Of a stretch of 64,000 nucleotides of DNA, positions 3,733-61,119 are shown in pieces. The position numbers were made by a program, and so were the translations under genes. The notes under the pieces are model-generated. The model had not been told where the DNA came from. It saw nothing but the letters and a program-made list of their open reading frames with translations, and did not search any database. Source of the DNA: a virus (Duplodnaviria; Caudoviricetes); the IMG/VR virus record IMGVR_UViG_3300002026_000124, positions 8,176-72,175 of that record; one strand, 5' to 3'. Each line of letters starts with the position of its first letter. Position 1 is the first letter of the stretch.

Positions 3733-6216
3733 TTATACACCACCCATTTGGGTTTTTCCTTGTGTTCCACCAGCAGCAAATTGATTACCCATTGCTTTTG
3801 TTTTAAAAGCATCTGATTTATATTCAACACCATTACGACCTAATCTCAAAGTACCACCACCATTTTCAACATATAGTTTTAATAACTCATATCTCTGTGG
3901 TAATTGTAGTTTTCTAGCTTCTTCAGCAATTGCACCCATTTGAGGATTGATTAAAATGTTTCGATATGCTTCACCAAACAATTTATTAACTTCGTTCGCA
4001 TTGTTAGGGTCAAGTTTTGCAAATTTTTCTTTTATACTCCAACCAAACATTTCATTTACTTGAACTTTTTTCTTTAATATTACGTTTTCATACAATTTAA
4101 ATTGTTTGTCAATAATACCATCAAGTTTTTTCATTGTGCTTGATTTTGCACTTTCATTAAGTGTTGATTTTCTTAAACCAGCTTTTTCTTCAAGACGTGT
4201 GCGAATATATTTTCTTACTTTAGCTTCACTTTCATTCATTGAAATCTGAACTTCTTTATCCGGACTGATAGTAATGTCAACACCAGTAGTTGGAGCACCG
4301 TCAGGTTTAACTGTAGCTACACCAAGACTTTGAGCACCTGGAGCAAAACCAGTGAATGGTTTGTCACCACTTTTTTCAAATGGTTTTTCAGCACCCATAT
4401 CATCAGCATCTTCTTCACTAGCAGTATCAATATCTTCGATGTCAATTCCGTCTTTTTCAACTTCTTCTTCATCTTCTTTTAACATGTTAGGTACACTGAC
4501 TTCAGTATTTAATGGGTCTACAGTTTCGGCAATACCTAAACCTGCAATTCCACCACCACTCTTTGAAGCACCAACTTCTTGACTAATAGCAGTCATGATT
4601 TTTTTAATGTCGACTTCAGCTTTTCCAGCACTTTTCAATCTAGTATTTAATGCTGTGATTTGTTTTCCTAAACTAGCTGCTTGTGCTTCTAATTTTTTAA
4701 CTTCTGCAGGAACTTCACCTGCATTATATGTTTGTTTAATTCCGGTAACGGCTTTATTAACACCCTGTTTAGCTTGGTCAAATTTTTGTCCAACTGCTTG
4801 ACCAACTTGGTTAGCTTTATTACCGATTGCCTGACTAGCTTGGTTTGCACCTGCCTTAATTCCACCAACTGCAGCTTTACCTAGGTTTTTTAAACCACCA
4901 AATAATTCGTTAAGTTGTGCAATATTTTCTTCATCTGAACTTTCATTCATTCCGGTAACCATAGGTTCAAGTTTATTTGCATAATCTTCATGACCATAAT
5001 CACCCTTTAATTGATTTAAAATTTCAGGATTAACTATTTTAATAACCATTGCAACATTTTCTAAATCGCCATCATTCTGACCATCATTATGTGCATTTGC
5101 ATAACCACTTACAAGGTTACCAACTTCTTCTTCACCACATTCCATAAGTGCTTCGGCACTATTATAACCACGTGATTCAGCATATTGTGCAAAACCACCA
5201 CATTCGCTACACTGTTCCACACCTTCAGCAGCCATACCCAATTCTTCTTCCCCACCATCTTGAGGTACACTATCACCTAAGTCAGCAATGTCATCTTGGT
5301 TAACAACCTTAATGAGTCTATTTGCCATATCTTTTCTATCTTCGATTTCAATTTCAGGAAGTTTATCTTTAAATGCAGATATAAAAGAATTAATATATGA
5401 CTTAACCTGTTCGTCAGTCATTTCTGTTTTTCTAATTTTATTAGTTATCTTACCAATAACTTTTTCAAGTTCTTTATTTGGTTCATCTGTTTCTTCGCCA
5501 GTATCAATACCGCCAGCATCTTCTGCTCCAGCTTCCATATCTTCAGCACCTTCAGCGCCTGCATCACCCATATCTTCACTACCTGCTTCAGCATCTTCTG
5601 CTCCTTCAGCACCTGCATCACCCATGTCACCCATATCTTCAGCACCCATTTCGTCTGCACCTGCTTCAGCATCGCCCATTCCCATATCCTCACCACCTGC
5701 TTCTGCACCTGCATCAGCCATATCACCACCTTCTGGTGGACCACTTGGAAGAGCCTGTGGTGCTGGTTCTGGAGTTGCATCTGCACTTGCAGCAGCATCT
5801 AAATCATCTACTTTACTAGCAGCCATATCGATTTCTTTTCCCGCAACATCTTCGTTTAAAACCATTTTGCTACCGGATTTATTTGGTTTTAATGAGTTTG
5901 CACCACCAATAGTGTGAAACATCATATTTCTTTGTTTGTCTGCTTCAGCTAAAGACTTAAATTGATAGTTTGTTATATTTGATAAACCACCAATATATGC
6001 AAAATCAGATGCGTTAGGGTCTTGTTTTGTTCCTGCCTTTTTAATATAGTAGTTATGGTTTTCTTTAATAATACCATATGCTACGCCATCGGCAGCTCTC
6101 TTATAATCAATAAGACTACCTGCACCACTAGTTTTGGTTTCTTTAATTATTGGTTTTACGCTACCTAAATTTCTAAGTCTTTCGTAATATGCTTCTTTTG
6201 ATGAATGGTTTTTCAT
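3733..6216 (-). CDS. acidic low-complexity head/scaffold-like protein
   Basis: 827 aa with GAEGAED/MGDAG acidic repeats; near terminase/portal; late motif 6260-6267; function inferred. Confidence 0.5.
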   Translation of the reverse strand: MKNHSSKEAYYERLRNLGSVKPIIKETKTSGAGSLIDYKRAADGVAYGIIKENHNYYIKKAGTKQDPNASDFAYIGGLSNITNYQFKSLAEADKQRNMMFHTIGGANSLKPNKSGSKMVLNEDVAGKEIDMAASKVDDLDAAASADATPEPAPQALPSGPPEGGDMADAGAEAGGEDMGMGDAEAGADEMGAEDMGDMGDAGAEGAEDAEAGSEDMGDAGAEGAEDMEAGAEDAGGIDTGEETDEPNKELEKVIGKITNKIRKTEMTDEQVKSYINSFISAFKDKLPEIEIEDRKDMANRLIKVVNQDDIADLGDSVPQDGGEEELGMAAEGVEQCSECGGFAQYAESRGYNSAEALMECGEEEVGNLVSGYANAHNDGQNDGDLENVAMVIKIVNPEILNQLKGDYGHEDYANKLEPMVTGMNESSDEENIAQLNELFGGLKNLGKAAVGGIKAGANQASQAIGNKANQVGQAVGQKFDQAKQGVNKAVTGIKQTYNAGEVPAEVKKLEAQAASLGKQITALNTRLKSAGKAEVDIKKIMTAISQEVGASKSGGGIAGLGIAETVDPLNTEVSVPNMLKEDEEEVEKDGIDIEDIDTASEEDADDMGAEKPFEKSGDKPFTGFAPGAQSLGVATVKPDGAPTTGVDITISPDKEVQISMNESEAKVRKYIRTRLEEKAGLRKSTLNESAKSSTMKKLDGIIDKQFKLYENVILKKKVQVNEMFGWSIKEKFAKLDPNNANEVNKLFGEAYRNILINPQMGAIAEEARKLQLPQRYELLKLYVENGGGTLRLGRNGVEYKSDAFKTKAMGNQFAAGGTQGKTQMGGV

Positions 6217-6294: not shown

Positions 6295-6555
6295 TTATAT
6301 TATTTCACCAACTTCGTTAGTGATTTTATTTTTAACTAGCATTTCAGCAACTCTTTTTGTGATTAAATTCTTTTTATTATATATATCAATAATTGATTGA
6401 TTCGCCTTTTTATGTGAAACATTTTCGTTTAGAAATTTTTCATTTTTATGCATATGCTCAACAATGTCATAGAAAACTTTTTCTGCCTTTTTATTTTCTA
6501 TGTATTCTTTTAATTGTGCTTCCGTAACTATAATTCTTTTCATTGCATTAGTCAT
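6295..6555 (-). CDS. hypothetical protein
   Basis: ORF with MKRIIVTEAQLKE N-terminus. Confidence 0.6.
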   Translation of the reverse strand: MTNAMKRIIVTEAQLKEYIENKKAEKVFYDIVEHMHKNEKFLNENVSHKKANQSIIDIYNKKNLITKRVAEMLVKNKITNEVGEII

Positions 6556-7351
6556 TATACTCTTTTAAACTTAATTCATCAGTCAAGTATTGGTTTTTCA
6601 TTTCAACCATTTTTTCTAAATATCCTGTGTTACGCAAAATTTTGAATACTAGGTTCTCAACACCAAATTCTCCCGATTTATCAAGTCCGGATTGTCTATA
6701 TTTTTTTATTTTATTTTTTAATACTTCATGCTTTTTAATGAAACTTTCATCGTTCATTTCATCTTCAAGGTCATCAATTGCATTCATCAGACCTGCAGAT
6801 TTTAATTGCACATCTGCCATATCAATGTTAATAATCTTCTTTATTGGTTTTCTAATCCAATCATTTTTAATTAGTGAATATGTACCTGAAGAATGATGAG
6901 GTTCTTTCGAATCTTGAAAATACATTTCAACATCATGACCTTTTACTTGTATAGGTAACTTATCTGCCCAAAGTTGTTTTTTTAATTTAAAGAAATCTCC
7001 AACAAAATCCTTATTTTCAGAGATTTGATTGAAGTCAAGTACTATGTGAATATCTAAATCGGAGTTCTCACTATAGTTATAGTTTGCCATGCTACCGGTT
7101 AATATTACGTCATCAAATTTGAGGTTCTCAACATCAGAAAATTCAATAAATCTTTTAGCATTCATTAATAATGTCTTCCTCACTTCTTGTTTTAGCTTGT
7201 CGTTATCCCAAATAAGCGGACTTAATGTATCGTTCATTTTTATTGATGATACATCAACTACCTCTGGTTCAATTACTTCTTTAAGAATTTCAGAAATATT
7301 ATTTTTCTTCCAGAATTTTGCGCTCCATTTTCTCGGATTATTGCTATCCAT
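6548..7351 (-). CDS. Pol-beta-superfamily nucleotidyltransferase
   Basis: ILTGSMANYNYSENSDLDIHI (GS...DLD motif). Confidence 0.75.
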   Translation of the reverse strand: MDSNNPRKWSAKFWKKNNISEILKEVIEPEVVDVSSIKMNDTLSPLIWDNDKLKQEVRKTLLMNAKRFIEFSDVENLKFDDVILTGSMANYNYSENSDLDIHIVLDFNQISENKDFVGDFFKLKKQLWADKLPIQVKGHDVEMYFQDSKEPHHSSGTYSLIKNDWIRKPIKKIINIDMADVQLKSAGLMNAIDDLEDEMNDESFIKKHEVLKNKIKKYRQSGLDKSGEFGVENLVFKILRNTGYLEKMVEMKNQYLTDELSLKEYND

Positions 7352-7355
7352 ATCT

Positions 7356-8051
7356 TTAATTAATATATGATGTTAATTCGTATTTACCACTATCCATTCT
7401 ATAAATACTAATTGTTACACTTCTATTTTTTTGTGGGACACCATCTTTCAATAGCTGTATTGTATCACGTTTAGTTTCGCCATAATTAATACCGCCAGTA
7501 CCAAAACGGAAGAACATAGCGTCTTCATCAACGGTATAACCCTTCTTCCCTACCTTTATTCTAACAGAATCGAGTGCTTCAGATAATGTATTAAAATATG
7601 TATCATTTTGTTGTGGCATATCAGAACCTTCAGCAATTCCGGCTTCTGGATTACTTGGCATTAATTTAGTAATAATTGTTTCTATTTTACCTAGAAGTTC
7701 TTTATAATTTTTATCGTTCTGCATTGAAAGGTAATCAAGTTTTCTTTTCAATTCATCAACCTTAATTTGATAATTTCCTTGGTCTTCATTAACATTCTGC
7801 TGAACGTTTTTTACACTCCTACTTATTAAAAGTCTATAGATTGAATCTATTACGCCATATTCTTGGTCTGATAATAAATCATCAATAACCCCTTTAATTT
7901 TTTCGGCTTTATCAGTATAAACTTCGGTGTCCATTTCAAGCCCCTCATTTAAATTTTTAGCCGAAATCACATTATTTAATTTAAATCCCGGATTTAATTT
8001 TACCATATTTTCGAAAAGCAATGCTTTAGAATCTTTAGCTGTTCTTATCAT
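7356..8051 (-). CDS. hypothetical protein with LFExM leader
   Basis: KDSKALLFENMVKLNPGF N-terminus. Confidence 0.65.
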   Translation of the reverse strand: MIRTAKDSKALLFENMVKLNPGFKLNNVISAKNLNEGLEMDTEVYTDKAEKIKGVIDDLLSDQEYGVIDSIYRLLISRSVKNVQQNVNEDQGNYQIKVDELKRKLDYLSMQNDKNYKELLGKIETIITKLMPSNPEAGIAEGSDMPQQNDTYFNTLSEALDSVRIKVGKKGYTVDEDAMFFRFGTGGINYGETKRDTIQLLKDGVPQKNRSVTISIYRMDSGKYELTSYIN

Positions 8052-8080
8052 AATATTTTCAATTTGTTATAAATACTAAT

Positions 8081-9469
8081 TTAATTGTGAATTAGATTAA
8101 TAATTCCTTGTGTGTCTTTTCTTGACGCAGGAATATCTGTATCGCCAGGTTTTATAATCACCCACCATTTTCTGTCATGTGGTAAGTTTCTATCGTGCGG
8201 CATCTTAATATAATCATCATACCATATAACATTTTTGTCATCTAAATTAAAAAGATGTTTATGCTGATGTTCATTATTATAATAATTAATGATTCTTGAT
8301 TTTATAATTGGCTTTTCAGTTTTTTCATCAAATTGCCACATGCCAGCCATATCTTTCCATTCCACATTTCCAATATCAGAGGGTTTCTCTTTAAAAAACT
8401 CACTAAATAATTTTGCTGGTGCTGCAACACCAAGTACATCACCTTTTGTAAGACCAGTTACTTGATGCCCTTCAAGTGAAAATTTAAACTCAAAATTTGG
8501 CGGTATTTTAGCACCCTTTATCATATTAACCTCTTTAGTGTATGCATAATGAATGGTGTTTGGAGTATTTCTAGCAATATCAAACGCCAATTCTAAATAT
8601 TTCGATGAGATAAAATCACCAGCATCATGCCATCTAACAACGGTATCTTCACCCCTTTTTTGACTATACCCCTCTATTTTTTGAATCTGTCCAATTATAT
8701 TATTTTTCCACTCATCCCAATGGTTAATAATATAATTTAATTTTTGCATTTTTTGTCTAATTGGTGGGTCGTATTGAACATAATTACCCATTTGAGCATA
8801 ACACCATTTTACACATTCTTTCGCTTGTGTACAAGTAATAAGAACATAGAAGTTTTCTGGTGAATAATCTCCCCTTTCTAAATAAATTATTGATTTTAGT
8901 GCAGGTAATGAAATGTTAAAAAAATTACTTTTCGCCATTTTTTGATTTTTACCTAATAACTTATCATCATCAAGTTTTGTTGTTAAAACATCTGCCAGTT
9001 TTTTTAAATCAAAATCTGGAATGTCTTCTGCTCGTACATCATAATATTTCCTAACTTTACCGGATAATTTCGATGGGTCAATTTTTTTTCCCGTTCTTCT
9101 ATCAACAACATTACTTAAATCAACAATCAAATCTTTAAGTGTTCCAGAATGTATACGACCAGTTGCACCAACACCTTGTTTATCACCACGTATGAATGCT
9201 GCCAGTTTTTCCTTAAAACCGCTTTGCATCTCCTGTTCAATACCTTTATCTAATTTAGCAGTTTTAATTGAATTAAACATTTCATCACCTTGCATTTCTT
9301 CACTAATTTCAGTACTACATGGAGTTTGTTCTATATCTTTTTGTAGTGGTACAAAATCAGATGTTGAGAATCCTGGGGGTAATTTGGATAAAGAATTTTC
9401 TTCTCTTAACGGCATTCCAGCAACCCTATTCATCATTTCGAATAATCGCTGTTTAGAATCTTTAATCAT
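8081..9469 (-). CDS. Gp88-like Cys-motif protein with LFExM leader
   Basis: FFNISLPA, CTQAKECVKWCYA, VRWHDAGDF and YAYTK motifs resemble phage gp88-like proteins. Confidence 0.6.
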   Translation of the reverse strand: MIKDSKQRLFEMMNRVAGMPLREENSLSKLPPGFSTSDFVPLQKDIEQTPCSTEISEEMQGDEMFNSIKTAKLDKGIEQEMQSGFKEKLAAFIRGDKQGVGATGRIHSGTLKDLIVDLSNVVDRRTGKKIDPSKLSGKVRKYYDVRAEDIPDFDLKKLADVLTTKLDDDKLLGKNQKMAKSNFFNISLPALKSIIYLERGDYSPENFYVLITCTQAKECVKWCYAQMGNYVQYDPPIRQKMQKLNYIINHWDEWKNNIIGQIQKIEGYSQKRGEDTVVRWHDAGDFISSKYLELAFDIARNTPNTIHYAYTKEVNMIKGAKIPPNFEFKFSLEGHQVTGLTKGDVLGVAAPAKLFSEFFKEKPSDIGNVEWKDMAGMWQFDEKTEKPIIKSRIINYYNNEHQHKHLFNLDDKNVIWYDDYIKMPHDRNLPHDRKWWVIIKPGDTDIPASRKDTQGIINLIHN

Positions 9470-15931: not shown

Positions 15932-16195
15932 TAAAGTTTAATTTAAAATAAATACTATGAGATTCATATAAATCTAAATAATTTTAACATTTAAAGTATT
16001 TATAAGTATGAAAGTCATTGCTTAATTAGGAATTAAGTTACGTCTGTAAAGTCAGAAATGGTTTTTGAAATTTTATCGCCAGTTAGTGGTTAAGTAAAAT
16101 TTAGACATAACAAAATGATTATTATGAATGCACTCCTTAAAAAAGAGTGCATTTTTTTATTAAATATAAATATTTTTATTTTTTTTCGAAAAAAG

Positions 16196-16226
16196 TTTGT
16201 ATTTATGATTTTAAGTCGTACATTTG
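16196..16226 (+). promoter_or_regulatory. Bacteroidota-type sigma70 promoter of tRNA operon 1
   Basis: TTTG (16196-99), 19-nt spacer, TACATTTG (16219-26). Confidence 0.75.
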
Positions 16227-16255
16227 TACTCTGTAATAGTTAAACATAGTTTGAA

Positions 16256-16330
16256 ATGAAAAATTTAGTAAACATACAACCCCAGCCGCAACAACATCCA
16301 AAAGATGGTGAATGGGAAAAGTTTGCTTAA
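16256..16330 (+). CDS. attenuator leader peptide 1 (Pro/Gln/His)
   Basis: MKNLVNIQPQPQQHPKDGEWEKFA*; QPQPQQHP core matches the downstream Pro/His/Gln tRNAs. Confidence 0.85.
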   Translation: MKNLVNIQPQPQQHPKDGEWEKFA

Positions 16331-16357
16331 ATTTTCAAGAGAAGTTTTAGGTTAATT

Positions 16358-16389
16358 AAACCCCATTCGTGACGAGTGGGGTTTTTTTT
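16358..16389 (+). terminator. attenuator terminator 1
   Basis: AAACCCCATTCG-TGA-CGAGTGGGGTTT plus T-run; 5' arm complementary to GAATGGG 16310-16316. Confidence 0.85.
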
Positions 16390-16397
16390 GTTTTTAT

Positions 16398-16473
16398 CGG
16401 GATATAGTACAGTTGGTAGTATGCGTGCTTTGGGAGCATGAGGTCGTCAGTTCGAGTCTGGCTATCCCGACCA
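16398..16473 (+). tRNA. tRNA-Pro(TGG)
   Basis: Cloverleaf, loop TT-TGG-GA, encoded CCA. Confidence 0.92.
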
Positions 16474-16474
16474 A

Positions 16475-16568
16475 CAGGAAGTGAGCGAGAGGTTGAAGCT
16501 ACTGGTCTTGGAAACCAGTCACGGCACAAAGGCGTTGTCGTGCGTGGGTTCGAACCCCACCTTCCTGA
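16475..16568 (+). tRNA. tRNA(TGG) with long variable arm
   Basis: CAGGAAG/CTTCCTG acceptor, CTGGT-CTTGGAA-ACCAG, about 25-nt variable arm. Confidence 0.8.
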
Positions 16569-16638
16569 CATGTGGACTGGTTAGAATTTACATACAAGGT
16601 CGTCCGTAATTGGAAATGATGCGTAGGAAATTCAACAT

Positions 16639-16713
16639 GGTGGGTATAGCTTAGTTGGTTAAAGCGTCTGATTGTGGTTCAGAAGACCGTGGGTTCGAAC
16701 CCCACTATCCACC
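16639..16713 (+). tRNA. tRNA-His(GTG)
   Basis: G-1, loop TT-GTG-GT, C73. Confidence 0.92.
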
Positions 16714-16721
16714 CTTTTTTT

Positions 16722-16797
16722 CGAGTAGTTGGGGAGTTGGTCACCCCGCCACATTTGGGATGTGGAGAACTCGCAGGTTCGAATCCTGCCTACTCGA
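16722..16797 (+). tRNA. tRNA-Pro(TGG)
   Basis: CCACA-TTTGGGA-TGTGG, C1:G72, A73. Confidence 0.9.
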
Positions 16798-16799
16798 CT

Positions 16800-16874
16800 G
16801 TGTTAGGCGTAGATGTTGGCATCTTCACTTGGCTGTGAACCAAGGCTTCGGGGGTTCGATTCCCCTCTAACACC
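16800..16874 (+). tRNA. tRNA-His(GTG)
   Basis: CTTGG-CTGTGAA-CCAAG, C73; no encoded G-1. Confidence 0.8.
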
Positions 16875-16966
16875 TAAAAGCGTGATAAAAGAGTTTATCA
16901 CGTTTATATGTGATTGAATATAAAATTTACTAATCAGCTTATATTATATTCAATCACATATAATAC

Positions 16967-17039
16967 TGTCTCGTGGTGTAATTGGCAACATGTTTGGCTC
17001 TGAACCAAAAGAGTAGGGGTTCGAAACCCTTCGAGACAA
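16967..17039 (+). tRNA. tRNA-Gln(CTG)
   Basis: TTTGG-CTCTGAA-CCAAA, U1:A72. Confidence 0.88.
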
Positions 17040-17044
17040 CATAT

Positions 17045-17125
17045 TATCCTTTGGCAGAATGGTCATTGCATCGCCCTTTGAAGGCGACACCGAGAGGTTT
17101 GCAGGTTCGAGTCCTGCAGGGATAA
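17045..17125 (+). tRNA. tRNA-Gln(TTG) with long variable arm
   Basis: TCGCC-CTTTGAA-GGCGA; variable hairpin ACC-GAGA-GGT; U1:A72. Confidence 0.82.
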
Positions 17126-17242
17126 CAAAAAGTTTTTGGAAATCTTGTATTTATTATTATCTTTGCATAAATATTGCTGGTATAATAACACGTTGTTATA
17201 GAATAGTACACGATGCATACTATCGCCAACATTTTTTAATAT

Positions 17243-17315
17243 TGTCCTGTGGTGTAATTGGCAACACGTCTGGTTTTGGTCCAGAAGAGTTCAGGTTCGA
17301 GACCTGACGGGACAA
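17243..17315 (+). tRNA. tRNA-Gln(TTG)
   Basis: TCTGG-TTTTGGT-CCAGA, U1:A72. Confidence 0.9.
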
Positions 17316-17467
17316 CAAATTTATTATTATGGGAAAATTAAGAGTTGGAAACAAGGAAAATTCTTTACTTAATGGTGAATGGGCAGGTCATGTTAGAAAA
17401 GATGGTAAGGAATGGACTGCAAGAAAACGCAGAAACCTTGACAAAGAAATAATTAAAAAGGAAAGCA

Positions 17468-17890
17468 ATGAGTTATAATTTATTCTTAGATGACTACAGA
17501 TTTCCAAAGGAAACTGTTGATTACATGTTTATTCCAATCTACACTAGTGAAGAATGGATAATCGTCAGGAATTACTATGCCTTTATTACAATAATTCAAA
17601 AGAAAGGTCTTCCGGATATCATTTCTTTCGACCACGACCTTGCAGATGTTCATTATAAGAATCAGGTTTTCGATTATAATGATGAAACCCTGGAAAAAAC
17701 CGGATATCATTGTGCAAAATGGCTCATTGACTATTGTCTCGATAATAATTTAGAAGTTCCCACAAGAATATTAATACATTCAATGAATCCTTACGGGACA
17801 CAGAATATCAAATCAGTTTTCGAAACCTACTTCAAGGTTTATGGTAAAGAATATAGTCCAATTAGCATTACCCCAAGCATGCGTAGATAA
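17468..17890 (+). CDS. cyclic-phosphate-processing receiver-like domain protein
   Basis: LFLDDYRFP...ISFDHDL...IHSMNP pattern. Confidence 0.65.
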   Translation: MSYNLFLDDYRFPKETVDYMFIPIYTSEEWIIVRNYYAFITIIQKKGLPDIISFDHDLADVHYKNQVFDYNDETLEKTGYHCAKWLIDYCLDNNLEVPTRILIHSMNPYGTQNIKSVFETYFKVYGKEYSPISITPSMRR

Positions 17891-19253: not shown

Positions 19254-19367
19254 ATGAAAAATTTACTCAACATATTATCAGTAGTCCTAGTGGATGCGCT
19301 CTTATGGGCAGCGGATGAGGATATGGTATATCGTGTCGGGTCGAAAGATACTGGAGTAGGTTATTAA
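19254..19367 (+). CDS. attenuator leader peptide 2 (Val/Leu/Asp/Ala/Trp/Glu/Met)
   Basis: MKNLLNILSVVLVDALLWAADEDMVYRVGSKDTGVGY*. Confidence 0.85.
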   Translation: MKNLLNILSVVLVDALLWAADEDMVYRVGSKDTGVGY

Positions 19368-19996: not shown

Positions 19997-20080
19997 GCAG
20001 CATTATACAAGCGGTCAAAGTAGCAAGTCCTTCAAACTTGCATCTTCGGATTTCGAGGGGTTCGAATCCCCCATGCTGTA
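19997..20080 (+). tRNA. tRNA(TTC, Glu) with long variable arm and C33
   Basis: CAAGT-CCTTCAA-ACTTG; variable hairpin ATC-TTCG-GAT. Confidence 0.75.
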
Positions 20081-20131
20081 CCTTGACTTTTCTGTACCAT
20101 AGGACTATTTATAATAAAATATTATACTCCT

Positions 20132-20776
20132 ATGGCACGAAAAGAAAAAAAATATCACTTTATTTATAAAACAATAAACATCATAAATAATAAGTTTTAT
20201 ATTGGTATGCATTCAACAGACAATTTGAATGATGGATATGTTGGTAGCGGAACAAGACTTTGGTATTCAATAAATAAATATGGTAGGGAAAATCATAGAT
20301 TGGAAATACTTGAATTTCATGAAACACGAATTATATTAAAAGAACGTGAAAAGAATTTAGTAAATGAGGATTTATTGAAAAATCCTATGTGCATGAACAT
20401 AAAGATTGGTGGTGAAGGTGGATTAAATGGTCTTTCACAAGAATCAATTAAAAAAATACGTAAGGGTGCATCTGATTTCATGAAAATGAAGTGGAATGAA
20501 CCAGAATTTAGAAATATGTGTTCTCAACGTTCTATAATTAAAATGAAAGAAAATCATAGACTTGGTAAAATGAGATATGATACGTTTATTGGTAAATCTC
20601 ATAGTGAAGAAACAAGAGAACTTATGAAAGTAGTTCATAAGGGAATGGGTATTGGTTCTACAAATTCTCAATTCGGTACTTGTTGGATAACTAAGTGTGG
20701 CGTAAATAAAAAAATTAATAATAATGATTTGTCCTTATATATTAGTGATGGTTGGTGTAAGGGTAGAGTCATATAA
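20132..20776 (+). CDS. GIY-YIG (Seg-like) homing endonuclease
   Basis: FIYKTINIINNKFYIGMHS...GYVGSG; NUMOD3-like GKSHSEETR. Confidence 0.88.
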   Translation: MARKEKKYHFIYKTINIINNKFYIGMHSTDNLNDGYVGSGTRLWYSINKYGRENHRLEILEFHETRIILKEREKNLVNEDLLKNPMCMNIKIGGEGGLNGLSQESIKKIRKGASDFMKMKWNEPEFRNMCSQRSIIKMKENHRLGKMRYDTFIGKSHSEETRELMKVVHKGMGIGSTNSQFGTCWITKCGVNKKINNNDLSLYISDGWCKGRVI

Positions 20777-21478: not shown

Positions 21479-21560
21479 ACGGGTATAGTCCAACGGTAGG
21501 ACGCTCTCTGTCCAAGGGGAGAAATAGGCTGCAGTCAGGGTTCAATTCCCCTTACCCGTG
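21479..21560 (+). tRNA. atypical tRNA, ambiguous anticodon (GTC or TCC), long variable arm
   Basis: ACGGGTA/TACCCGT acceptor, G73, irregular anticodon loop, variable hairpin GGCT-GC-AGTC. Confidence 0.6.
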
Positions 21561-21620
21561 CAAAAAATAATTATTATCCTTGTATTATATATTAACTGCA
21601 TATACTAAGATAATAAATAT

Positions 21621-21923: not shown

Positions 21924-22742
21924 GTGAATACTTGGAAAACTAATAGAAAAACAATTTTAATTAATTGTGAAAATTGTGGAAATGAATTCAAAAAAACATT
22001 ATCTGAATATAATCGTTCAGAAAAATTAAATAAAAAACATTTTTGTTCATTAAAATGTAATAATGAATCTAAAAAGATTAAACTAAAATTCTGTTTACAA
22101 TGTAATGAAGAGTTTATTCCCGATAAAAATAAAACTAAGTTCTGTTCACATTCTTGTAACGCAAAATATAATAATAAAAATAGAAAGGGTATTAAATACA
22201 ATATAAGTGAAAATGGTTTAATTGGATTAAGGGAATCGTATAAAAATAATTTCGGATATGATATTATAAAATTTAGAAATAACTATTATCAATCACAGAA
22301 TTATTGTAAAGAATGTAATGAACCTATTCCATATGAAAAAAAGAATCATGTTTTTTGTAATCGGGATTGTAAAAGAACATATGATAGAAAGAATTTAACT
22401 GAATATCAAAAATACTATAAAGATTGTCAATTTAAATTTGGTTTATCAGACTATCCAAATGAATTTGATTTCGAATTGATTAAAACACATGGTTGGTATC
22501 AACCAAAAAATCATGGCAATAACTTAGGTGGAATTAGTAGAGACCATATGATTTCAGTAAAATATGGATATGAAAATAATATTAGTTCTGAGATAATTAG
22601 TCATCCTGCCAATTGTCAATTGATGATTCATAATGAGAATATTAGTAAATATAAGAATTGTTCAATAACATTAGAAGAACTAATGATTAAAATTGATAAT
22701 TGGAATGAAAAATATTCACAAATAACAATGGGTTTAACATAG
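21924..22742 (+). CDS. HNH homing endonuclease with Zn-finger repeats
   Basis: CxxC...FCSxxC repeats; C-terminal SRDHMIS...HPANCQLMIHNEN. Confidence 0.8.
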   Translation: MNTWKTNRKTILINCENCGNEFKKTLSEYNRSEKLNKKHFCSLKCNNESKKIKLKFCLQCNEEFIPDKNKTKFCSHSCNAKYNNKNRKGIKYNISENGLIGLRESYKNNFGYDIIKFRNNYYQSQNYCKECNEPIPYEKKNHVFCNRDCKRTYDRKNLTEYQKYYKDCQFKFGLSDYPNEFDFELIKTHGWYQPKNHGNNLGGISRDHMISVKYGYENNISSEIISHPANCQLMIHNENISKYKNCSITLEELMIKIDNWNEKYSQITMGLT

Positions 22743-23764: not shown

Positions 23765-23847
23765 TCGTTCGTGGTAGAGTGGTCGATTACATTGGTCTCC
23801 AAAACCAATAGAGAAATCTCACGTGGGTTCGAATCCTACCGAACGAG
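23765..23847 (+). tRNA. tRNA-Trp(CCA) with long variable arm
   Basis: TTGGT-CTCCAAA-ACCAA; variable hairpin GAG-AAAT-CTC; G73. Confidence 0.85.
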
Positions 23848-24247
23848 CATAAATAATGGTAAAAATTGCGGGTACGTACACAAGTCAAAGTTCTTTCCAA
23901 CGGAACACCGACTACTACTGAGGGTAGAGATATTCCCAAGAGCAATATCAGTTAGTGTATGACCATTATTTTATAATTTTTTATAAAATTTCCAAAAATC
24001 TTTAAATTTTTATTATTTTTTATTTTTCAGATAGTATTTATCTGAAAAGTATAACTATGGCAATATCAAAACAAGACAATGCTTGTAGAACGTTCATTAT
24101 AAATGAAAAGGAGTACAATGTCTATAAAGATGGGAAGCACACATTTGTTAAATCTGAGGATAAAATTGTATTTAATAGTACAAAATCTGATATAACTGTG
24201 TCTCAATGGTTAAAAAAAATAAGAAATACTAAATAATAAGAATTTAA

Positions 24248-25936
24248 ATGGCAATATTAGGAACAGATGTATCGGTAAGTGTAGGTGGTAATATTCGTTG
24301 GACGGGTGGTGCAACAACAAACTATACAGTACTTGAATTACATAGATTTTTACAAGATTTGGCTGACGATGCAGCTGCAAGTGGAAATGATTTAATTGAT
24401 ATTACAAGTAGTACACCATCTGAAAGGTCAACAGATAATATCATCACATTATTGGGAAGTTACAATATCGATGATACGATGGCGAAGCATCTTTATGATG
24501 GTTCTATTACGCAGAGTGGGGGTAGTACAGTATATTCTGGTTTAAAGGTGTTGGGTGCTGTAAATAACAGTGCAACTCAATTACAAGTTATTCAGAATAA
24601 CGGTTTATATGATGGTGCAGCACCTTTCTGGGGAACTCAGGCAACTGGTGGTTTTAATGGTAGTGCAGCTTCCGGGGTTTTGATGCGATGTTTAATTAAA
24701 TCGAGATTTGGAAATAATGATATTGATGGTAAGCGTATTAGGGTACAGGCAAGACATTGGGGTGACACATATGATTTCTTTAACGTTACTTTGGGTCAGG
24801 GTGAAGCCGTAGCTGCTATTGGTACAACACCTGATGCACAAAATACTACATCTAAGCCGACAGTTACTGCATATACTCATGTTGCGAACACCGAAGGTTA
24901 TCAAACAATTAATTTAAATAATGGTAATGGTGCACAACCTTATTATTCTAAATGGACATATGGTGTAAATACTTCTGGTGATGGACTTAAAGGTGTTTGG
25001 GAATATATTAAAGATTTAACTGGTACTGGTACAGCAAAAACTTTACATGGTATCAACGGTGAATTGTTTTTAGGTGTTACACATCAATATGCGTATAGTG
25101 GAGAAACTGGAACTGCATTTATTGAAGACGATGTTATTACTTGGGGTGCGGGTGCTACTGCAGGGACTGGTTTATTACTTGCATTAAATGATGCCGGAAC
25201 GACTGGTACTGTATGGATGCAATTACTAACTGGTGTTGCACCAACAAATGCGATGACAGTCAATAATGAAGCTGCTAATGGTAGTCATAAACTTAATGGG
25301 AATACTACTACAAGAACAATTCCTAAAGTATTTTTAGGTTCATATACAGGTTCACTAATTGGTGCATTTGGTATTGGTGTACTGGCTTCAAATTTACTTT
25401 CGACTGATAGTATTCAAGATTTACTTGGTGTTACTCAAATTCCACCAAACAACGTTACATTTACTGTATCTGGATTGGTAAGTGGACAGGACATGGTGTT
25501 GGTAGGACCGAAAGCTGGTGGTGATACATTTGACTTTGCACAATTAACATTAAATACAACATTAGCGGCTGGCTCAACAACAGTTGTTGTAACTACTGCA
25601 ATTCCTTCTGATACACCTTCAAGTGGAACTATTAGGGTACTTGATAATAATGGTGTTTATATTCGTGCACCATATACATCATGGGCAGGAAGTACATTTA
25701 ATTTAACCGGTACTTTTGGTAGTGCTGCAACTGCACCTAAAAATGTTTGGATATCATATATTGATAGACTTGCTGACGATACTACAGAAGCATTTACATC
25801 AATCTATAGTGCACCAAGGTCACTTTGGATTAGGGTTCGTGATGGTGGTGTGACTCCTATTAAAACATATGAATCACAAGGTACATTAGGTTCTGCTGGT
25901 GGTAGTGCAGTTGCAAGTAGAATTACAGACCTTTAA
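24248..25936 (+). CDS. putative virion structural protein
   Basis: 562 aa, Gly/Thr-rich; late motif 24034-24041. Confidence 0.6.
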   Translation: MAILGTDVSVSVGGNIRWTGGATTNYTVLELHRFLQDLADDAAASGNDLIDITSSTPSERSTDNIITLLGSYNIDDTMAKHLYDGSITQSGGSTVYSGLKVLGAVNNSATQLQVIQNNGLYDGAAPFWGTQATGGFNGSAASGVLMRCLIKSRFGNNDIDGKRIRVQARHWGDTYDFFNVTLGQGEAVAAIGTTPDAQNTTSKPTVTAYTHVANTEGYQTINLNNGNGAQPYYSKWTYGVNTSGDGLKGVWEYIKDLTGTGTAKTLHGINGELFLGVTHQYAYSGETGTAFIEDDVITWGAGATAGTGLLLALNDAGTTGTVWMQLLTGVAPTNAMTVNNEAANGSHKLNGNTTTRTIPKVFLGSYTGSLIGAFGIGVLASNLLSTDSIQDLLGVTQIPPNNVTFTVSGLVSGQDMVLVGPKAGGDTFDFAQLTLNTTLAAGSTTVVVTTAIPSDTPSSGTIRVLDNNGVYIRAPYTSWAGSTFNLTGTFGSAATAPKNVWISYIDRLADDTTEAFTSIYSAPRSLWIRVRDGGVTPIKTYESQGTLGSAGGSAVASRITDL

Positions 25937-33173: not shown

Positions 33174-33455
33174 GGGGGCGACTTGGATTTGATTAGATGT
33201 CAGATTGGTAAAGTAAGCAAGTCTTAGTTGAATCAGACTAAGTAAAAAAGAGTGTTGAACTCGCAATGGTAGCGTAGGGAATAAACAAACCAACAAAAAC
33301 TTCTGGTGAAGTAAGTTATGAATAAGTGAGTAACGAATCCCGAAGAGAAACTAAAATGTAAACTATTCTATTTTGCTTGTTTAGAAAAACGAGATAAACT
33401 TGTAGAAAACCTATTAATCACATTTAAGACGAGGGTTCGAATCCCTCCGCTTCCA
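33174..33455 (+). ncRNA. ssrA: tmRNA
   Basis: 5' GGGGGCGACTTGGATTTGA; 3' GAGGG-TTCGAAT-CCCTC-CGCTTCC-A; G3:U70; internal tag ORF ending GEVSYE*. Confidence 0.88.
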
Positions 33456-33481
33456 CTTAATACATTAAAAATCAATTAGTT

Positions 33482-34557: not shown

Positions 34558-34646
34558 GGCGGGGTGGTGGAATTGGTAGACACGCTGGACTTAAAATCCA
34601 GTGGGCAGTAATGCCCGTGTGGGTTCGAGTCCCATCCCCGCTACCA
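34558..34646 (+). tRNA. tRNA-Leu(TAA)
   Basis: CTGGA-CTTAAAA-TCCAG, class II arm, CCA. Confidence 0.93.
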
Positions 34647-34661
34647 AAAATTAGAAAAATT

Positions 34662-34934
34662 ATGGCGAAATTAAAAGTGCCTGTGGATGTACTGTATGAA
34701 AAATGCAGGAAAGTCATTAATCATGAAATCCGAATTGAATCTCGTGAAGAAGCAAGAGAAATTATGCTACTTACTACAGAGAAGCATCGTAATGATTTCG
34801 TCAAATATCACCAACAGGACATGGGTAATATTTGTTGCATGGTTCTTGATGCAGCAAAGCAAGACTTGGTGAAAGAAGGAAAATTAGTTCTGAAACCCGA
34901 AGATAGTTTCGGACACCCATTAACATTTGAATAA
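34662..34934 (+). CDS. hypothetical protein
   Basis: Start reassigned to MAKLKVP, downstream of the tRNA. Confidence 0.55.
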   Translation: MAKLKVPVDVLYEKCRKVINHEIRIESREEAREIMLLTTEKHRNDFVKYHQQDMGNICCMVLDAAKQDLVKEGKLVLKPEDSFGHPLTFE

Positions 34935-35164
34935 TATGGCAATAATTTATTAAAAAAACTGTAAAGAAAAGACTATGATAGATATTAAAGCGGGTGAAGG
35001 TTTATGCGAATATATTCGAAGGGCAAATGGTATGAAAAAAGAAATATCGCAATTAAGTGACATACCAAAAATTGTAAATAGTGATAAAATTACAATTACT
35101 GGTGGTGCTGAATTTATTGGGAAATTTTTGAATGCGTTACCGGAAGAATATAAATAATTTTAAA

Positions 35165-35247
35165 GTCCTTGTGATGAAATTGGTAGCACGTGATAGTTTC
35201 AAAAACTATTGCCTTCGGGCGTGAGGGTTCGAGTCCCTCCAAGGACA
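35165..35247 (+). tRNA. tRNA-Leu(CAA)
   Basis: ATAGT-TTCAAAA-ACTAT, class II arm. Confidence 0.9.
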
Positions 35248-35323
35248 CTAATTTAATTAAAATTTAAAACGATGAAAGAAAAATTTAAAGTCTTGTAGGT
35301 TGCTCTAATGCGACTACAAGAAA

Positions 35324-35644
35324 ATGAGAGTAAAAACTATTTCAAAGACCACTACTAATCGTGGTGTATTCAATCGTGCGTATAAAGAACTTCTTGAACG
35401 CAAAGGTAGAATCCATTGTTCACGTTGCAAATACCATAAAGGTGAAAACTATGAAGGTAAATGGTATGGAGAATATATTTATGACGATATGAATACCTGT
35501 CGTGGTAAATCAGGAACTCATACAAAGTTACCAAATTGGAAACTTGTTTCAAAACAACCAAAACAATGGATGAAAAAACCCATCAAATTTGTTGATAAAC
35601 AATATGGTGGGTACAGGTACATTTACGTTGACATCAAATGGTGA
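35324..35644 (+). CDS. basic hypothetical protein
   Basis: CSRC motif, 106 aa. Confidence 0.55.
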   Translation: MRVKTISKTTTNRGVFNRAYKELLERKGRIHCSRCKYHKGENYEGKWYGEYIYDDMNTCRGKSGTHTKLPNWKLVSKQPKQWMKKPIKFVDKQYGGYRYIYVDIKW

Positions 35645-35655
35645 TGTCAACACAT

Positions 35656-35727
35656 TGCGAGTTAGCTTAGTGGTAAAGCATCACCTTCATAAAGTGGAGA
35701 CCGAGGGTTCGAGTCCCTCACTCGCAA
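35656..35727 (+). tRNA. tRNA(CAT), Met or Ile2
   Basis: Loop TTCATAA, canonical T arm. Confidence 0.82.
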
Positions 35728-35728
35728 C

Positions 35729-39503: not shown

Positions 39504-39583
39504 AAAATGTATTATTTATGTTTATATCATTAATTTTAACATAAATACTGTAACATAATCATAAATTATTCGTATAATTGCAC

Positions 39584-40675
39584 ATGAACTCATTTTTAGA
39601 AAAAGTCGATTGGAATGTATTAAATACATATATCGACAATAGCTTAATTATCTCAAACAAGCATCCAGAATATGATATTTGGATTCTTAATTATTCGCCA
39701 AAGGTTCAGTCTAAGAAATTTTGGGATGAATATACTTTGTCATGCCGTGGACTCGTTATTGATGCCGAAGGCAATATCTTAGCACGACCATTTCAAAAAT
39801 TCAAGAACTATGAAGAATATGACCCATCAGAATTCGATTGGTCTCAGGACTTCGATGTGTTTGAAAAAATGGATGGCTCATTAATTATCTTATTTTACTA
39901 CGAACCACGTATGGAATGGATAATTGCGTCAAGGGGTTCTTTCGCATCTGAACAAGCGATTGAAGGAAGAAAAATGATTGAGTCTAATACATATAATCAT
40001 TTAGACGTTAAAGAAACATATTTGTTCGAAATTCTGTATCCAGAAAATCGCATTGTTGTCGATTACGGTAATAGAAGAGAATTAGTATTATTAGGTAGAG
40101 TTAACACTTTAGATGGTTTTGAATTATATTATGACGATTTAGTTTCAATGCATTCAAAATATTTTACCGTTGTAAAGAAATTTAATATTAAGTCTTTCGT
40201 TGAATTAAGAGAATTGATAACTAAGGGTGAAGAAAACAAAGAAGGATTTGTAATTAGGTTTTACAGTGGTTTAAGAATTAAGATGAAATTTGCTGAATAT
40301 GTTAGACTACACGGAATCATAACAAATGTCTCAAATCTAGTTGTTTGGGAACATTTGAGAGACAAATATGAATTTGATGAATTGCTTGATAGAGTACCTG
40401 ACGAGTTTTATCAGTGGCTTAATAAAACAGTAGCAACATTAAATAATGAATTCTACAATATTGAGAGATTGGCGTTGAAGGAATTTATTAGGATTTATTA
40501 TAATGACGACACTGTTATTCGTAAAGATTTTGCAATGGAAGCACAAAAAAGTGCTTATCGTTCAATTTTATTTAAAATTTACGATAAAAATAGTTACGAT
40601 GAAATCATATGGAATATGATAAGACCTGAATATAGTAAACCATTTAAGGATGGTTATGTAGATGAAACTTTATGA
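39584..40675 (+). CDS. RNA ligase 1 (T4 Rnl1-like)
   Basis: CRGLV, EKMDGSL motif I, FEIL, EGFV, IKMKF. Confidence 0.88.
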   Translation: MNSFLEKVDWNVLNTYIDNSLIISNKHPEYDIWILNYSPKVQSKKFWDEYTLSCRGLVIDAEGNILARPFQKFKNYEEYDPSEFDWSQDFDVFEKMDGSLIILFYYEPRMEWIIASRGSFASEQAIEGRKMIESNTYNHLDVKETYLFEILYPENRIVVDYGNRRELVLLGRVNTLDGFELYYDDLVSMHSKYFTVVKKFNIKSFVELRELITKGEENKEGFVIRFYSGLRIKMKFAEYVRLHGIITNVSNLVVWEHLRDKYEFDELLDRVPDEFYQWLNKTVATLNNEFYNIERLALKEFIRIYYNDDTVIRKDFAMEAQKSAYRSILFKIYDKNSYDEIIWNMIRPEYSKPFKDGYVDETL

Positions 40676-43607: not shown

Positions 43608-43700
43608 ATGAAAATTTTTGGCACATATTATTACGGTAAAAAATCTTATAAGAAACATCTTACGAGAATCGGGAATGTTATGTCCAAAAAGCAAAAATAA
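43608..43700 (+). CDS. attenuator leader peptide 3 (Tyr/Lys)
   Basis: MKIFGTYYYGKKSYKKHLTRIGNVMSKKQK*. Confidence 0.85.
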   Translation: MKIFGTYYYGKKSYKKHLTRIGNVMSKKQK

Positions 43701-44197: not shown

Positions 44198-44282
44198 GTA
44201 TTCGTAGCAAAGTGGTTATGCTCCTGCCTTTTAAGCAGAGTGTCTAAACAACACAACGTGGGTTCGATTCCCACCGAATACA
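44198..44282 (+). tRNA. tRNA-Lys(TTT) with long variable arm
   Basis: CTGC-CTTTTAA-GCAG; variable hairpin GTGT-CTAAACA-ACAC. Confidence 0.82.
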
Positions 44283-44287
44283 CAAAT

Positions 44288-54014: not shown

Positions 54015-54143
54015 ATGAAATCACAAGTATCCAATATTAACATTTCGTCAACGATTAATAGTCGTAATGGAGAAAGTATATTCTGTTCAAGTTTTACAGG
54101 CAGAAATATAGCGGATACGGGTTCAGGATTTTTATCGTGTTGA
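54015..54143 (+). CDS. attenuator leader peptide 4 (Ser/Asn/Ile/Thr/Phe/Cys/Gly/Arg)
   Basis: MKSQVSNINISSTINSRNGESIFCSSFTGRNIADTGSGFLSC*. Confidence 0.85.
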   Translation: MKSQVSNINISSTINSRNGESIFCSSFTGRNIADTGSGFLSC

Positions 54144-55160: not shown

Positions 55161-55241
55161 TGTGACGTGGATGAATGGTTTAGTCACCACGCTGATACCG
55201 TGGGTCGCAAGACAACGTGGGTTCGAGTCCCACCGTCACAA
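55161..55241 (+). tRNA. tRNA-Ile(GAT) with long variable arm
   Basis: CCACG-CTGATAC-CGTGG; variable hairpin GTC-GCAA-GAC. Confidence 0.85.
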
Positions 55242-55273
55242 CAAAGCAATCAAAATTTTAATCATTCACTAAT

Positions 55274-56729: not shown

Positions 56730-56818
56730 GGGAGTGTAGCTGATTAGGCTTTAGCTGCAGACTGTTAATCTGTGAATGAAAAATTGAAATAAAGTAGGTT
56801 CGAATCCTTCCTCTCCCG
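56730..56818 (+). tRNA. tRNA-Asn(GTT) with 20-nt A-rich variable region
   Basis: GCAGA-CTGTTAA-TCTGT, G73. Confidence 0.78.
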
Positions 56819-56856
56819 CTCTAAATAATTGCAATATTCTTCGTATTTATGTTGGA

Positions 56857-60009: not shown

Positions 60010-60092
60010 GCCGATGTGGTTCAGGGGTCGACAACGCCAGTCTTGTAAACTGGAGACGTAAGTCCGCGCTGGTTCGAATCCAGCCATCGGCT
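60010..60092 (+). tRNA. tRNA-Thr(TGT) with long variable arm
   Basis: CCAGT-CTTGTAA-ACTGG; variable hairpin GAC-GTAA-GTC. Confidence 0.85.
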
Positions 60093-60133
60093 CTCTAAAA
60101 ATAACTTTATTAATACAAATAACATGGAAAGCG

Positions 60134-60355
60134 ATGAAGGTAAGCAGAGAAAAAACAGCAACCTTGTTTCTATTCTTAGGAACATTTTTCAACCCATTGG
60201 GTTACGATGCAGCTCTAAAGTGGCTGATGGACACAACAGGCAGTTATTGGTTTTCAATTTCTATTTTTTACCTTGTATCGCTGTCTTGTTTTATATCTTA
60301 CTTTGTATTAGCTAAGATAAACCCTTTTAAAATTTTTACAAGAAAAAGGAATTAA
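60134..60355 (+). CDS. small membrane protein
   Basis: Two hydrophobic segments. Confidence 0.5.
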   Translation: MKVSREKTATLFLFLGTFFNPLGYDAALKWLMDTTGSYWFSISIFYLVSLSCFISYFVLAKINPFKIFTRKRN

Positions 60356-60387
60356 TGTTGGAAATTAATTCCCTTTTTATTACATTT

Positions 60388-60459
60388 GCCCTTATAGTAT
60401 AACGGATAATACAGAGGTCTTCTAAACCACAGATTGGGGTTCGATTCCCCGTAGGGGTA
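60388..60459 (+). tRNA. tRNA-Arg(TCT)
   Basis: Loop CTTCTAA, A20. Confidence 0.85.
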
Positions 60460-60478
60460 CTATCTTAAATTTAAAACA

Positions 60479-60661
60479 ATGAATAGAGTAAAAATTACGA
60501 TTAATGTCGACAGCGAAAAAGAATTAACTGAGAAAGAAATTGTTGAAGCAATGGTTAATTTTAAATATCGCTTAGAAGGATACACCACCGAGTCTCCTGA
60601 ATTTTTATCTAATGCTGAAATTAGTATTGATAAAAAATATGTTATAACAACACTCTCATAG
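60479..60661 (+). CDS. hypothetical protein
   Basis: 60 aa ORF between tRNAs. Confidence 0.45.
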   Translation: MNRVKITINVDSEKELTEKEIVEAMVNFKYRLEGYTTESPEFLSNAEISIDKKYVITTLS

Positions 60662-60723
60662 TTCAACGGATAGAATTGGAGTTTCCTAAACTTTAGACAC
60701 AGGTTCGATTCCTGTTGGGAGTA
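60652..60723 (+). tRNA. tRNA-Arg(CCT)
   Basis: Loop TTCCTAA, A20. Confidence 0.85.
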
Positions 60724-60738
60724 CAAAAAAATGTTATT

Positions 60739-61119
60739 ATGATTAGATTTTTAAATAAAAACGATAAAAAGGAGCTAAACAATTTAATAAAAATTGCTCT
60801 TAATGAAAAAATGTTTATTGTAAAAAAGAAAAATCATCATTTCTTCGGCTATTTTGAAGACAATAAATTAGTTGGCGTTGTTGGATTTTTTACAATGAAA
60901 AGATTTAAAACTATTGGTTTTGTAAGTGCATTTGTTTTACCCGAATATCGTGGAAAGGGTATTTATGATAAACTTTCGAAAGAAAGATTGGAATATTGTC
61001 AACAACATTATAACGGTTTTATCATATTTATAACAACAAATGATAAAAGCAGACCACAGATGGAAAAAATTGGTTTTAAATTGATTGAACATCAATATAG
61101 AATGTATTTAAATATTTAA
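60739..61119 (+). CDS. GNAT acetyltransferase
   Basis: FVLPEYRGKGIY motif A. Confidence 0.85.
   Translation: MIRFLNKNDKKELNNLIKIALNEKMFIVKKKNHHFFGYFEDNKLVGVVGFFTMKRFKTIGFVSAFVLPEYRGKGIYDKLSKERLEYCQQHYNGFIIFITTNDKSRPQMEKIGFKLIEHQYRMYLNI

Follow-up and report, generated by a model that had tools for sequence, protein, structure and literature searches.

Transcription attenuation in enterobacterial amino acid operons is governed by translated leaders (trpL, hisL, pheL, and leuL) in which a terminator is combined with a series of regulatory codons and with 1:2, 2:3, and 3:4 pairings that exclude one another, such that the position of the ribosome decides the outcome. A leader of similar design was found in a 64-kb stretch of DNA (hereafter, the window) from a single phage contig of 72,175 bp (IMG/VR record IMGVR_UViG_3300002026_000124), in which a 24-codon open reading frame (ORF) precedes a cluster of transfer RNA (tRNA) genes for proline, histidine, and glutamine. 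With high probability, judging from its layout and conservation, this leader constitutes a ribosome-mediated (leader-peptide) transcription attenuator gating the phage Pro/His/Gln tRNA cluster. Its closest enterobacterial counterparts are thrL and ilvL, which also sample more than one amino acid; furthermore, the likeness of strand 2 to strand 4, and of strand 1 to strand 3, is a feature shared with the trp leader. Unlike in the enterobacterial leaders, however, the genes controlled would be those of tRNAs rather than of biosynthetic enzymes, with the product acting by decoding the sensor and not via amino acid pools; the element is also viral, has a Bacteroidota-type promoter, and lacks a Shine-Dalgarno sequence. 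The Rfam families for the Trp, His, Thr, and Leu leaders gave no match at the gathering score and were not among 28 weak hits. Indeed, no Rfam family beyond tRNA and transfer-messenger RNA (tmRNA) reached the gathering score, and a permissive scan of positions 16100-16420 returned sub-threshold, unrelated terminator-bearing leaders.

Comparison can also be made with systems that control components of translation. In Escherichia coli, pheM is the leader-peptide attenuator of the pheST (phenylalanyl-tRNA synthetase) operon, and thus controls a translation component for the same amino acid; here, tRNAs are controlled rather than a synthetase, three amino acids are involved rather than one, and the unit is viral rather than cellular. 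T-box riboswitches likewise respond to the state of a particular tRNA by switching between terminator and antiterminator before translation-related genes, but they bind the tRNA directly without a ribosome, possess a large conserved architecture, and are typical of Firmicutes; the Rfam T-box model was not matched in either the gathering-score or the permissive search, and no T-box features were found in the leader. Descriptions of how tRNA genes are controlled usually concern the promoter (growth rate, stringent response), and we know of no cis-acting sensor that gauges the speed of codon reading and replies with the tRNAs for those codons. Leader-peptide attenuation has been reported for amino acid operons of Flavobacterium psychrophilum (PMC9723704). 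These candidates share the host phylum, the promoter type, and the proposed mechanism with the present locus, but are cellular and control amino acid biosynthesis operons; they make the mechanism plausible for the host group. No published attenuator before tRNA genes was found in the literature searched, the library for which is incomplete, and none was found in a survey of viral tRNA clusters (PMC6409571). The mechanism would thus be classical ribosome-mediated attenuation, with its novelty, to our knowledge, lying in regulated tRNA genes that decode the leader itself.

The leader reading frame and the tRNA cluster

The core of the leader comprises eight consecutive Gln, Pro, or His codons (CAA CCC CAG CCG CAA CAA CAT CCA), a run for which P is ~1.5e-9 at that position, with the background for this amino acid set (0.079) taken from the composition of the long ORFs of the phage. 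All eight downstream tRNA genes called by ARAGORN are likewise for Pro, His, or Gln (Table 1). Seven of them are supported by the Rfam tRNA model, with the His call at 16800-16874, made by ARAGORN only, falling below the gathering score; no tRNA gene for these amino acids occurs elsewhere in the whole contig. Both the codon run and the tRNA identities had been pointed out in an initial annotation of this DNA, and both were confirmed; its further statement that several isoacceptors are sampled required amendment, because only Gln is represented by two anticodons in the cluster and the leader therefore samples synonymous codons rather than several isoacceptors. The leader uses the two rarest Pro codons of the phage, which may serve sensing or may only reflect the CCCCA that strand 1 requires. 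The elements from the promoter through the ORF, strand 2, and the terminator to the first tRNA gene are packed so closely that no further promoter would fit, and the first tRNA gene starts at 16398, 8 nt past the T run of the terminator.

For comparison with relatives, the cREC_REC (cyclic-phosphate processing receiver) gene downstream of the cluster (17468-17890) was used as an anchor, with which 56 IMG/VR loci were retrieved. About 35 of these share the order of Pro/His/Gln cluster, anchor gene, and Asp/Glu/Val/Leu/Ala/Trp cluster. Orthologous leaders were identified in IMG/VR contigs as 20 distinct aligned sequences and two divergent ones (L008 and L018), giving 22. The leader frame is open in all 20 aligned orthologues, and the other two frames in one and three, respectively. 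Lengths range from 22 to 24 codons (32 in one case), every indel is a multiple of three, and 11, 11, and 19 of 23 columns are variable at codon positions 1, 2, and 3, respectively (Fisher P 0.009). Through exchanges of CAA with CAG and among CCA, CCG, and CCC, the core remains Gln/Pro/His in the relatives. The alignments thus indicate a clear coding constraint on the leader ORF, and its translation is predicted.

Conservation is also seen at the level of the RNA. Strand 2, the antiterminator strand (GAATGGG), is invariant in the 20 orthologues and is kept in L004 despite the different reading frame there, and it is because of this retention in another frame that the RNA signal appears independent of the peptide. 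The comparison therefore indicates that strand 2 is under an RNA-level constraint beyond what the peptide explains. In L008 and L018, GAACGGG, CCCGTTC, and GAACGGGG stand in place of the GAATGGG, CCCATTC, and GAGTGGGG of the others—that is, one position is altered jointly in strands 2, 3, and 4, a three-way compensated change, with the Gln/Pro/His core being kept. The 20 close orthologues gave no information on covariation of the 2:3 helix, as both of its strands are invariant among them.

The gap between the terminator and the first tRNA gene is 2-25 nt in 13 of the 20 orthologues, and the other seven have an inserted ORF between the two. A conserved Lys-rich ORF of 42-44 codons was observed at this position, before the first tRNA-Pro, in four relatives. 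In L020, the leader is rich in Gln, Pro, and His and is followed by a terminator, but no convincing strand 2 was found in that sequence; an apparent 5' half of a tRNA-Pro gene (anticodon loop with TGG) lies directly after the terminator (7900-8530), with ~600 nt of other sequence separating it from the next called tRNA, and may possibly represent an interrupted tRNA gene. tRNA-His seemed to be absent from L006, L018, and L040, which would have weighed against codon matching, but this was an effect of the ARAGORN threshold, and each locus has one.

Alternative folds and the proposed switch

An ORF under coding constraint, regulatory codons matching the controlled genes, an intrinsic terminator, and an antiterminator sharing a strand with it are thus found together. 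GAATGGG (16310-16316) is the exact complement of CCCATTC (16362-16368) within the 5' arm of the terminator, in agreement with the pairing first suggested in the initial annotation, and lies 10 nt past the core and 11 nt ahead of the stop codon. A complement of at least 7 nt to the terminator arm arose within the ORF in 128 of 20,000 shuffles, and the combined P for the four units of the window described below is 5e-6. The 2:3 helix together with the inner hairpin folds with -19.1 kcal/mol; for this hairpin, some compensatory pairs were observed (e.g., CG:8, UA:7). The 1:2 pairing (CCCA:UGGG) was recovered in the RNAalifold consensus, with -10.4 kcal/mol in the local fold and 92% of cells paired in the 20 aligned leaders. 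Globally, the two mutually exclusive states differ little in energy, with 1:2 plus 3:4 at -36.2 kcal/mol and 2:3 at -35.4 kcal/mol. The whole leader is more stable than shuffled sequences (z -3.6), with the minimum free energy structure being the antiterminated form and the centroid being the terminated form.

The effect of ribosome position was examined with a footprint model, in which 28 nt were masked around each A-site codon and the RNA outside the polymerase before emergence of strand 4 was folded. In the window leader, the 2:3 helix was present with the A site on codons 1-15 and was lost from codon 16 through the stop codon. In the orthologues, 2:3 formed at all core codons but at most one in 18 of 20, and was blocked at the stop codon in 19 of 20. 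In this model, the geometry of ribosome positions is one that fits the requirement of classical attenuation.

We infer from this layout that the leader is translated and that slow decoding opens the cluster. Transcription would start from the promoter at 16196-16226, with the 24-codon leader being translated as RNA polymerase advances. When Gln, Pro, and His codons are decoded fast, the ribosome would reach the stop codon (16328), its footprint would cover strand 2, and the 3:4 terminator would form, so that transcription would stop 8 nt short of the first tRNA gene. When decoding of any core codon is slow, the ribosome would stall on 16277-16300 and hide strand 1, leaving strand 2 free to pair with the emerging strand 3; the terminator would then not form, and transcription would proceed into the tRNA genes and, probably, as far as the RNA-repair-type gene that follows. 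As the tRNA products decode the core codons of the leader itself, the arrangement implies a circuit of negative feedback on the supply of Pro, His, and Gln tRNAs.

Sister units and competing explanations

Three further units of the window contain a promoter, a short ORF, an in-ORF complement to the terminator arm, a terminator, and tRNA genes. Each of the four leaders is enriched in the codons of its own tRNA set (binomial P from 2e-3 to 7e-7), and the true pairing of leaders and clusters was the best of 24 assignments, with 73 matches versus 58 for the next best. The tRNA gene at 21778 is for tRNA-Ala with a G3:U70 pair, and once it is counted, the core of the second leader matches 16/16. Two tRNA groups lack a leader of their own and directly follow protein genes, namely those at 34558-35728 (Leu, Leu, Met) and 60010-62200 (Thr, four Arg, an odd tRNA whose anticodon was called with two bases, and Gly); the latter group may be served by the fourth leader, which contains Arg and Gly codons.

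Cellulophaga phage phi4:1 (L001, NC_021788.1), which is cultured and was linked to the window phage by blastn solely through a tRNA-Gln match, has three leader-and-terminator units before its three tRNA blocks. The cores of these leaders match their own tRNA sets 11/11, 16/16, and 10/10, although the tRNAs are partitioned differently from those of the window phage. Glu is grouped with Pro, Gln, and His in phi4:1, and Glu codons occur in that leader there alone, which suggests that leader composition tracks tRNA content and not ancestry. The annotated gp075 of phi4:1 begins 5' of a repeated promoter, its start probably having been mis-called, and the other two leaders are unannotated. Furthermore, a blind scan for an ORF, a 7-nt complement, and a terminator in the window and 57 fetched loci (~0.98 Mb) yielded 59 units on the + strand, all 59 of which lie within 1 kb upstream of a tRNA gene (45 within 60 nt), whereas 22% of positions do so by chance; the 98 terminator-like hairpins of the opposite strand included no such unit. 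Overall, the attenuator reading put forward in the initial annotation gains support from the conserved ORF with its third-position variation, the compensated switch, the codon-matched sister units, and the exclusive association with tRNA genes.

Three other explanations were considered. An attenuator could report general translation status, such as ribosome availability, transcription-translation coupling, or infection stage, with the tRNA cluster being merely timed by it. In the fold model, any slowing before codon 16 gives read-through, and the seven N-terminal codons are also conserved and are common to the second leader, as such a sensor would allow. This explanation nevertheless appears improbable, as it leaves unexplained why, in two unrelated phages that partition their tRNAs differently, each of seven units matches the amino acids of its own cluster and why the core amino acids are kept through synonymous changes.

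A translation-independent RNA switch, in which free tRNAs would base-pair through their anticodons with the leader codons, much as at a T-box specifier, and so select terminator or antiterminator, is very improbable. The core is complementary to the downstream anticodons and the leader RNA is bistable, but neither a T-box nor any Rfam leader family was matched at the gathering score, with the permissive scan reaching only chance level; the start codon, stop codon, and frame are conserved, with in-frame indels and third-position variation, and the boundary between permissive and non-permissive ribosome positions coincides with the end of the core. Equally hard to credit is a free-standing micropeptide gene with its own terminator, with leaky read-through or an unrecognised promoter supplying the tRNAs and any likeness to an attenuator being incidental: small conserved phage genes are common and the peptide is conserved along its full length, including residues outside the core, but C-terminal conservation falls on the residues that strand 2 and the inner hairpin encode, the strand-2 complement is both significant and compensated, the terminator lies within 2-25 nt of the tRNA in 13 of 20 distinct orthologues, and the design is seen solely in front of tRNA clusters.

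Several points weigh against the attenuator reading itself. The 1:2 pairing is short, with four conserved pairs and a few variable ones, and, as it never varies, it provides no covariation; that of the 2:3 helix rests on the two divergent sequences and paralogues. The 2:3 helix has just 7 bp in the window phage, versus 8 in most relatives, and because the terminator is thermodynamically competitive with a helix of this length, the outcome would depend on kinetics. In the nascent-RNA fold, 2:3 also forms without any ribosome, and the behaviour of the leader without translation is therefore ambiguous. Ribosomes that reach the stop codon would leave strand 2 uncovered in the three sister units; switching there must therefore differ in detail, and, according to the model, must lean more on 1:2-type pairings or on timing. 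Sensing of His would be weak because the core has a single His codon, and extra tRNA would be of no help if the amino acid, not the tRNA, were short. Finally, given the internal promoter-like element within the cluster, expression of the downstream genes and of one or more Gln tRNAs may escape the switch.

Neighbouring features, host and biological meaning

Table 1. Coordinates of the attenuator, its tRNA cluster, and related features (positions refer to the window unless another sequence is named)
Feature	Position	Strand	Details
Upstream hairpin and T run	16126-16161	+	Fold -12.2 kcal/mol, z -4.3
Leader promoter	16196-16226	+	TTTG (-33 box) 16196-16199; TACATTTG (-7 box) 16219-16226; predicted start ~16231
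Leader ORF	16256-16330	+	24 codons + TAA; frame open in 20/20 aligned orthologues
Regulatory core	16277-16300	+	Codons 8-15; eight consecutive Gln/Pro/His codons (QPQPQQHP)
Strand 1	16280-16289	+	Within core; candidate anti-antiterminator through CCCA:UGGG pairing with strand 2
Strand 2	16310-16316	+	Antiterminator strand GAATGGG; invariant in 20 orthologues, compensated in 2 others
Inner hairpin	16320-16357	+	Around stop codon; draws strands 2 and 3 together; -6.9 kcal/mol
Intrinsic terminator	16358-16389	+	12-bp stem, -17.4 kcal/mol, eight T
Strand 3	16358-16369	+	Terminator 5' arm
Strand 4	16373-16384	+	Terminator 3' arm
tRNA genes (8)	16398-17316	+	ARAGORN: Pro(tgg) x3, His(gtg) x2, Gln(ctg), Gln(ttg) x2
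Seven tRNA genes under the putative attenuator	16398-17126	+	Pro, Pro (long variable arm), His, Pro, His, Gln(ctg), Gln(ttg)
Internal promoter-like two-box element	17135-17165	+	TTTG ... TATCTTTG, the latter at 17158-17165
Last tRNA-Gln(ttg)	17243-17316	+	3' of internal promoter-like element; ARAGORN, Rfam
49-codon ORF and cREC_REC gene (140 codons, 17468-17890)	17329-17890	+	Synteny in ~35 contigs
Second leader	19254-19367	+	Before Asp/Glu/Met/Val/Leu/Ala/Trp tRNAs
Third leader	43608-43700	+	Before Lys/Tyr tRNAs
Fourth leader	54015-54143	+	Before Thr/Cys/Ile/Ser/Asn/Phe/Gly tRNAs, further on Arg
Long tRNA genes	16475-16569, 17045-17126, 19997-20082, 21479-21561, 23765-23848, 44198-44283, 55161-55242, 56730-56819, 60010-60093	
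phi4:1 leaders (NC_021788.1)	5564-5632, ~6524-6607, 8270-8368		
Lys-rich ORF in relatives	L005 8515-8643, L006 7477-7605, L018 9210-9344, L022 8101-8229		First gene under the putative attenuator there

The window, with a G+C content of ~33%, has phage-like content: for instance, one protein of tail-fibre type carries an endosialidase-chaperone domain, and a tRNA cluster contains a homing-endonuclease-like ORF. ARAGORN called 47 tRNA genes, all on the + strand and grouped in blocks by amino acid; Rfam supports nearly all of these calls and adds the tRNA at 21778 and a tmRNA. A tblastn search with the 562-residue ORF at 24248-25933 against 50,697 phage records, made for the nearest cultured relative, gave no match, and blastn of the region returned matches to tRNA genes only. 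The sequencing runs containing most of the stretch are DNA from microbial-mat metagenomes, with the other runs covering a small share of it, and no RNA run is among the matches listed. Because promoter-like sites of the window carry both boxes typical of Bacteroidota sigma-A (TTTG and TAnnTTTG), the host is probably a member of the Bacteroidota.

The motif TTTG N18-20 TAnnTTTG occurs eight times in the window versus 2.9 expected, and four of its six + strand occurrences precede tRNA units; in Flavobacterium, the -7 box lies at -12 to -5 (PMC9723704). Upstream of the leader promoter, the hairpin with a T run is predicted to insulate the unit from transcription originating to the left. The suggestion, also made in the initial annotation, that a second element (17158-17165) drives the last Gln tRNA independently has some support from the sequence: the full two-box motif is present, with TTTG 23 nt upstream of the start of TATCTTTG, a spacing equal to that of three leader promoters, and similar boxes occur before the last Gln tRNA or just past the cluster in several relatives, but not in all. 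An independent promoter is thus plausible at this site; it may sustain basal expression of the last Gln tRNA and of the genes downstream, or may chiefly serve the protein genes behind the cluster. These comprise a 49-codon ORF and the cREC_REC gene (Pfam PF20274, E 5e-21). A scan for terminators on the + strand past the tRNA cluster found none before 19387, and it is on this ground that both genes probably belong to the same transcription unit as the tRNAs.

Several tRNA genes of the window are unusual in form. Nine are 82-95 nt long, with anticodons for Pro, Gln, Glu, Asp, Trp, Lys, Ile, Asn, and Thr, and two of these, for Pro (16475-16569) and Gln (17045-17126), belong to the present cluster and have unusually long variable arms. 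An extended variable arm is normally confined to tRNAs for Leu, Ser, and Tyr. Such an arm is seen in both of the genes whose ARAGORN drawings were inspected, with a 7-bp stem in the Pro gene, and the long-variable-arm Pro gene recurs in relatives. Most of the long genes score 45-59 bits with the Rfam tRNA model, that at 21479 scores 35, and that at 19997 falls below the gathering score. Between the second His and first Gln tRNA genes of the cluster (16880-16963), there are two strong hairpins (-32.5 kcal/mol in total, z -9.3), one with a 10-bp stem and the other a near-perfect inverted repeat of 20 bp; they may mark a site of processing or a second point of control, or may be a small mobile element. 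Homing-endonuclease-like ORFs lie in or beside tRNA clusters, both in the window (20132-20776 and 21924-22742) and 5' of the first tRNA-Pro in L002, L008, L009, and L023, as judged by a weak NUMOD3 match, a GIY-YIG-like N-terminus seen by eye, and Cys/His-rich HNH-like ORFs in relatives.

Other RNA-repair-type genes of the window encode a T4 Rnl1-type RNA ligase (39578-40675) and a calcineurin-like phosphoesterase (metallophosphoesterase; 62975-63817). The phage also encodes a tmRNA (33174-33458; Rfam RF00023), which is conserved in the phage group (L006 17638-18004, L018 17973-18341, and L025 14332-14693), the scores with RF00023 being 68-119 bits for the window and these relatives.

The physiological trigger of the proposed switch could be scarcity of host tRNAs for these codons, as from a mismatch between phage codon use and the host pool, or the destruction of such tRNAs by host nucleases. 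The cREC gene, Rnl1-type RNA ligase, metallophosphoesterase, and tmRNA are consistent with a nuclease trigger, but are not proof of it. A tentative extension, which we consider possible but rather doubtful, is that the unit is one channel of a closed-loop tRNA homeostat of the phage serving as a counter-defence sensor. Anticodon nucleases or host shut-off would then deplete Pro, His, or Gln tRNAs and cause stalling, and thereby the production of replacement tRNAs and the cREC protein; tRNAs with long variable arms among the replacements may escape the nucleases, and the RNA ligase, phosphoesterase, and tmRNA elsewhere in the genome would act as back-up.

A direct test of the attenuator is possible in phi4:1, which carries three units and is cultured together with its host. 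If the attenuator reading is correct, such phages would produce their tRNA arrays as needed and under feedback, instead of carrying them as constitutive baggage, and a function would be provided for the tiny, usually unannotated or mis-annotated ORFs heading phage tRNA clusters. Such leaders would also constitute compact natural codon-specific sensors for synthetic biology. More broadly, the finding would bear on why phages carry tRNAs, that is, on whether they compensate for codon usage or replace tRNAs destroyed by host defences.

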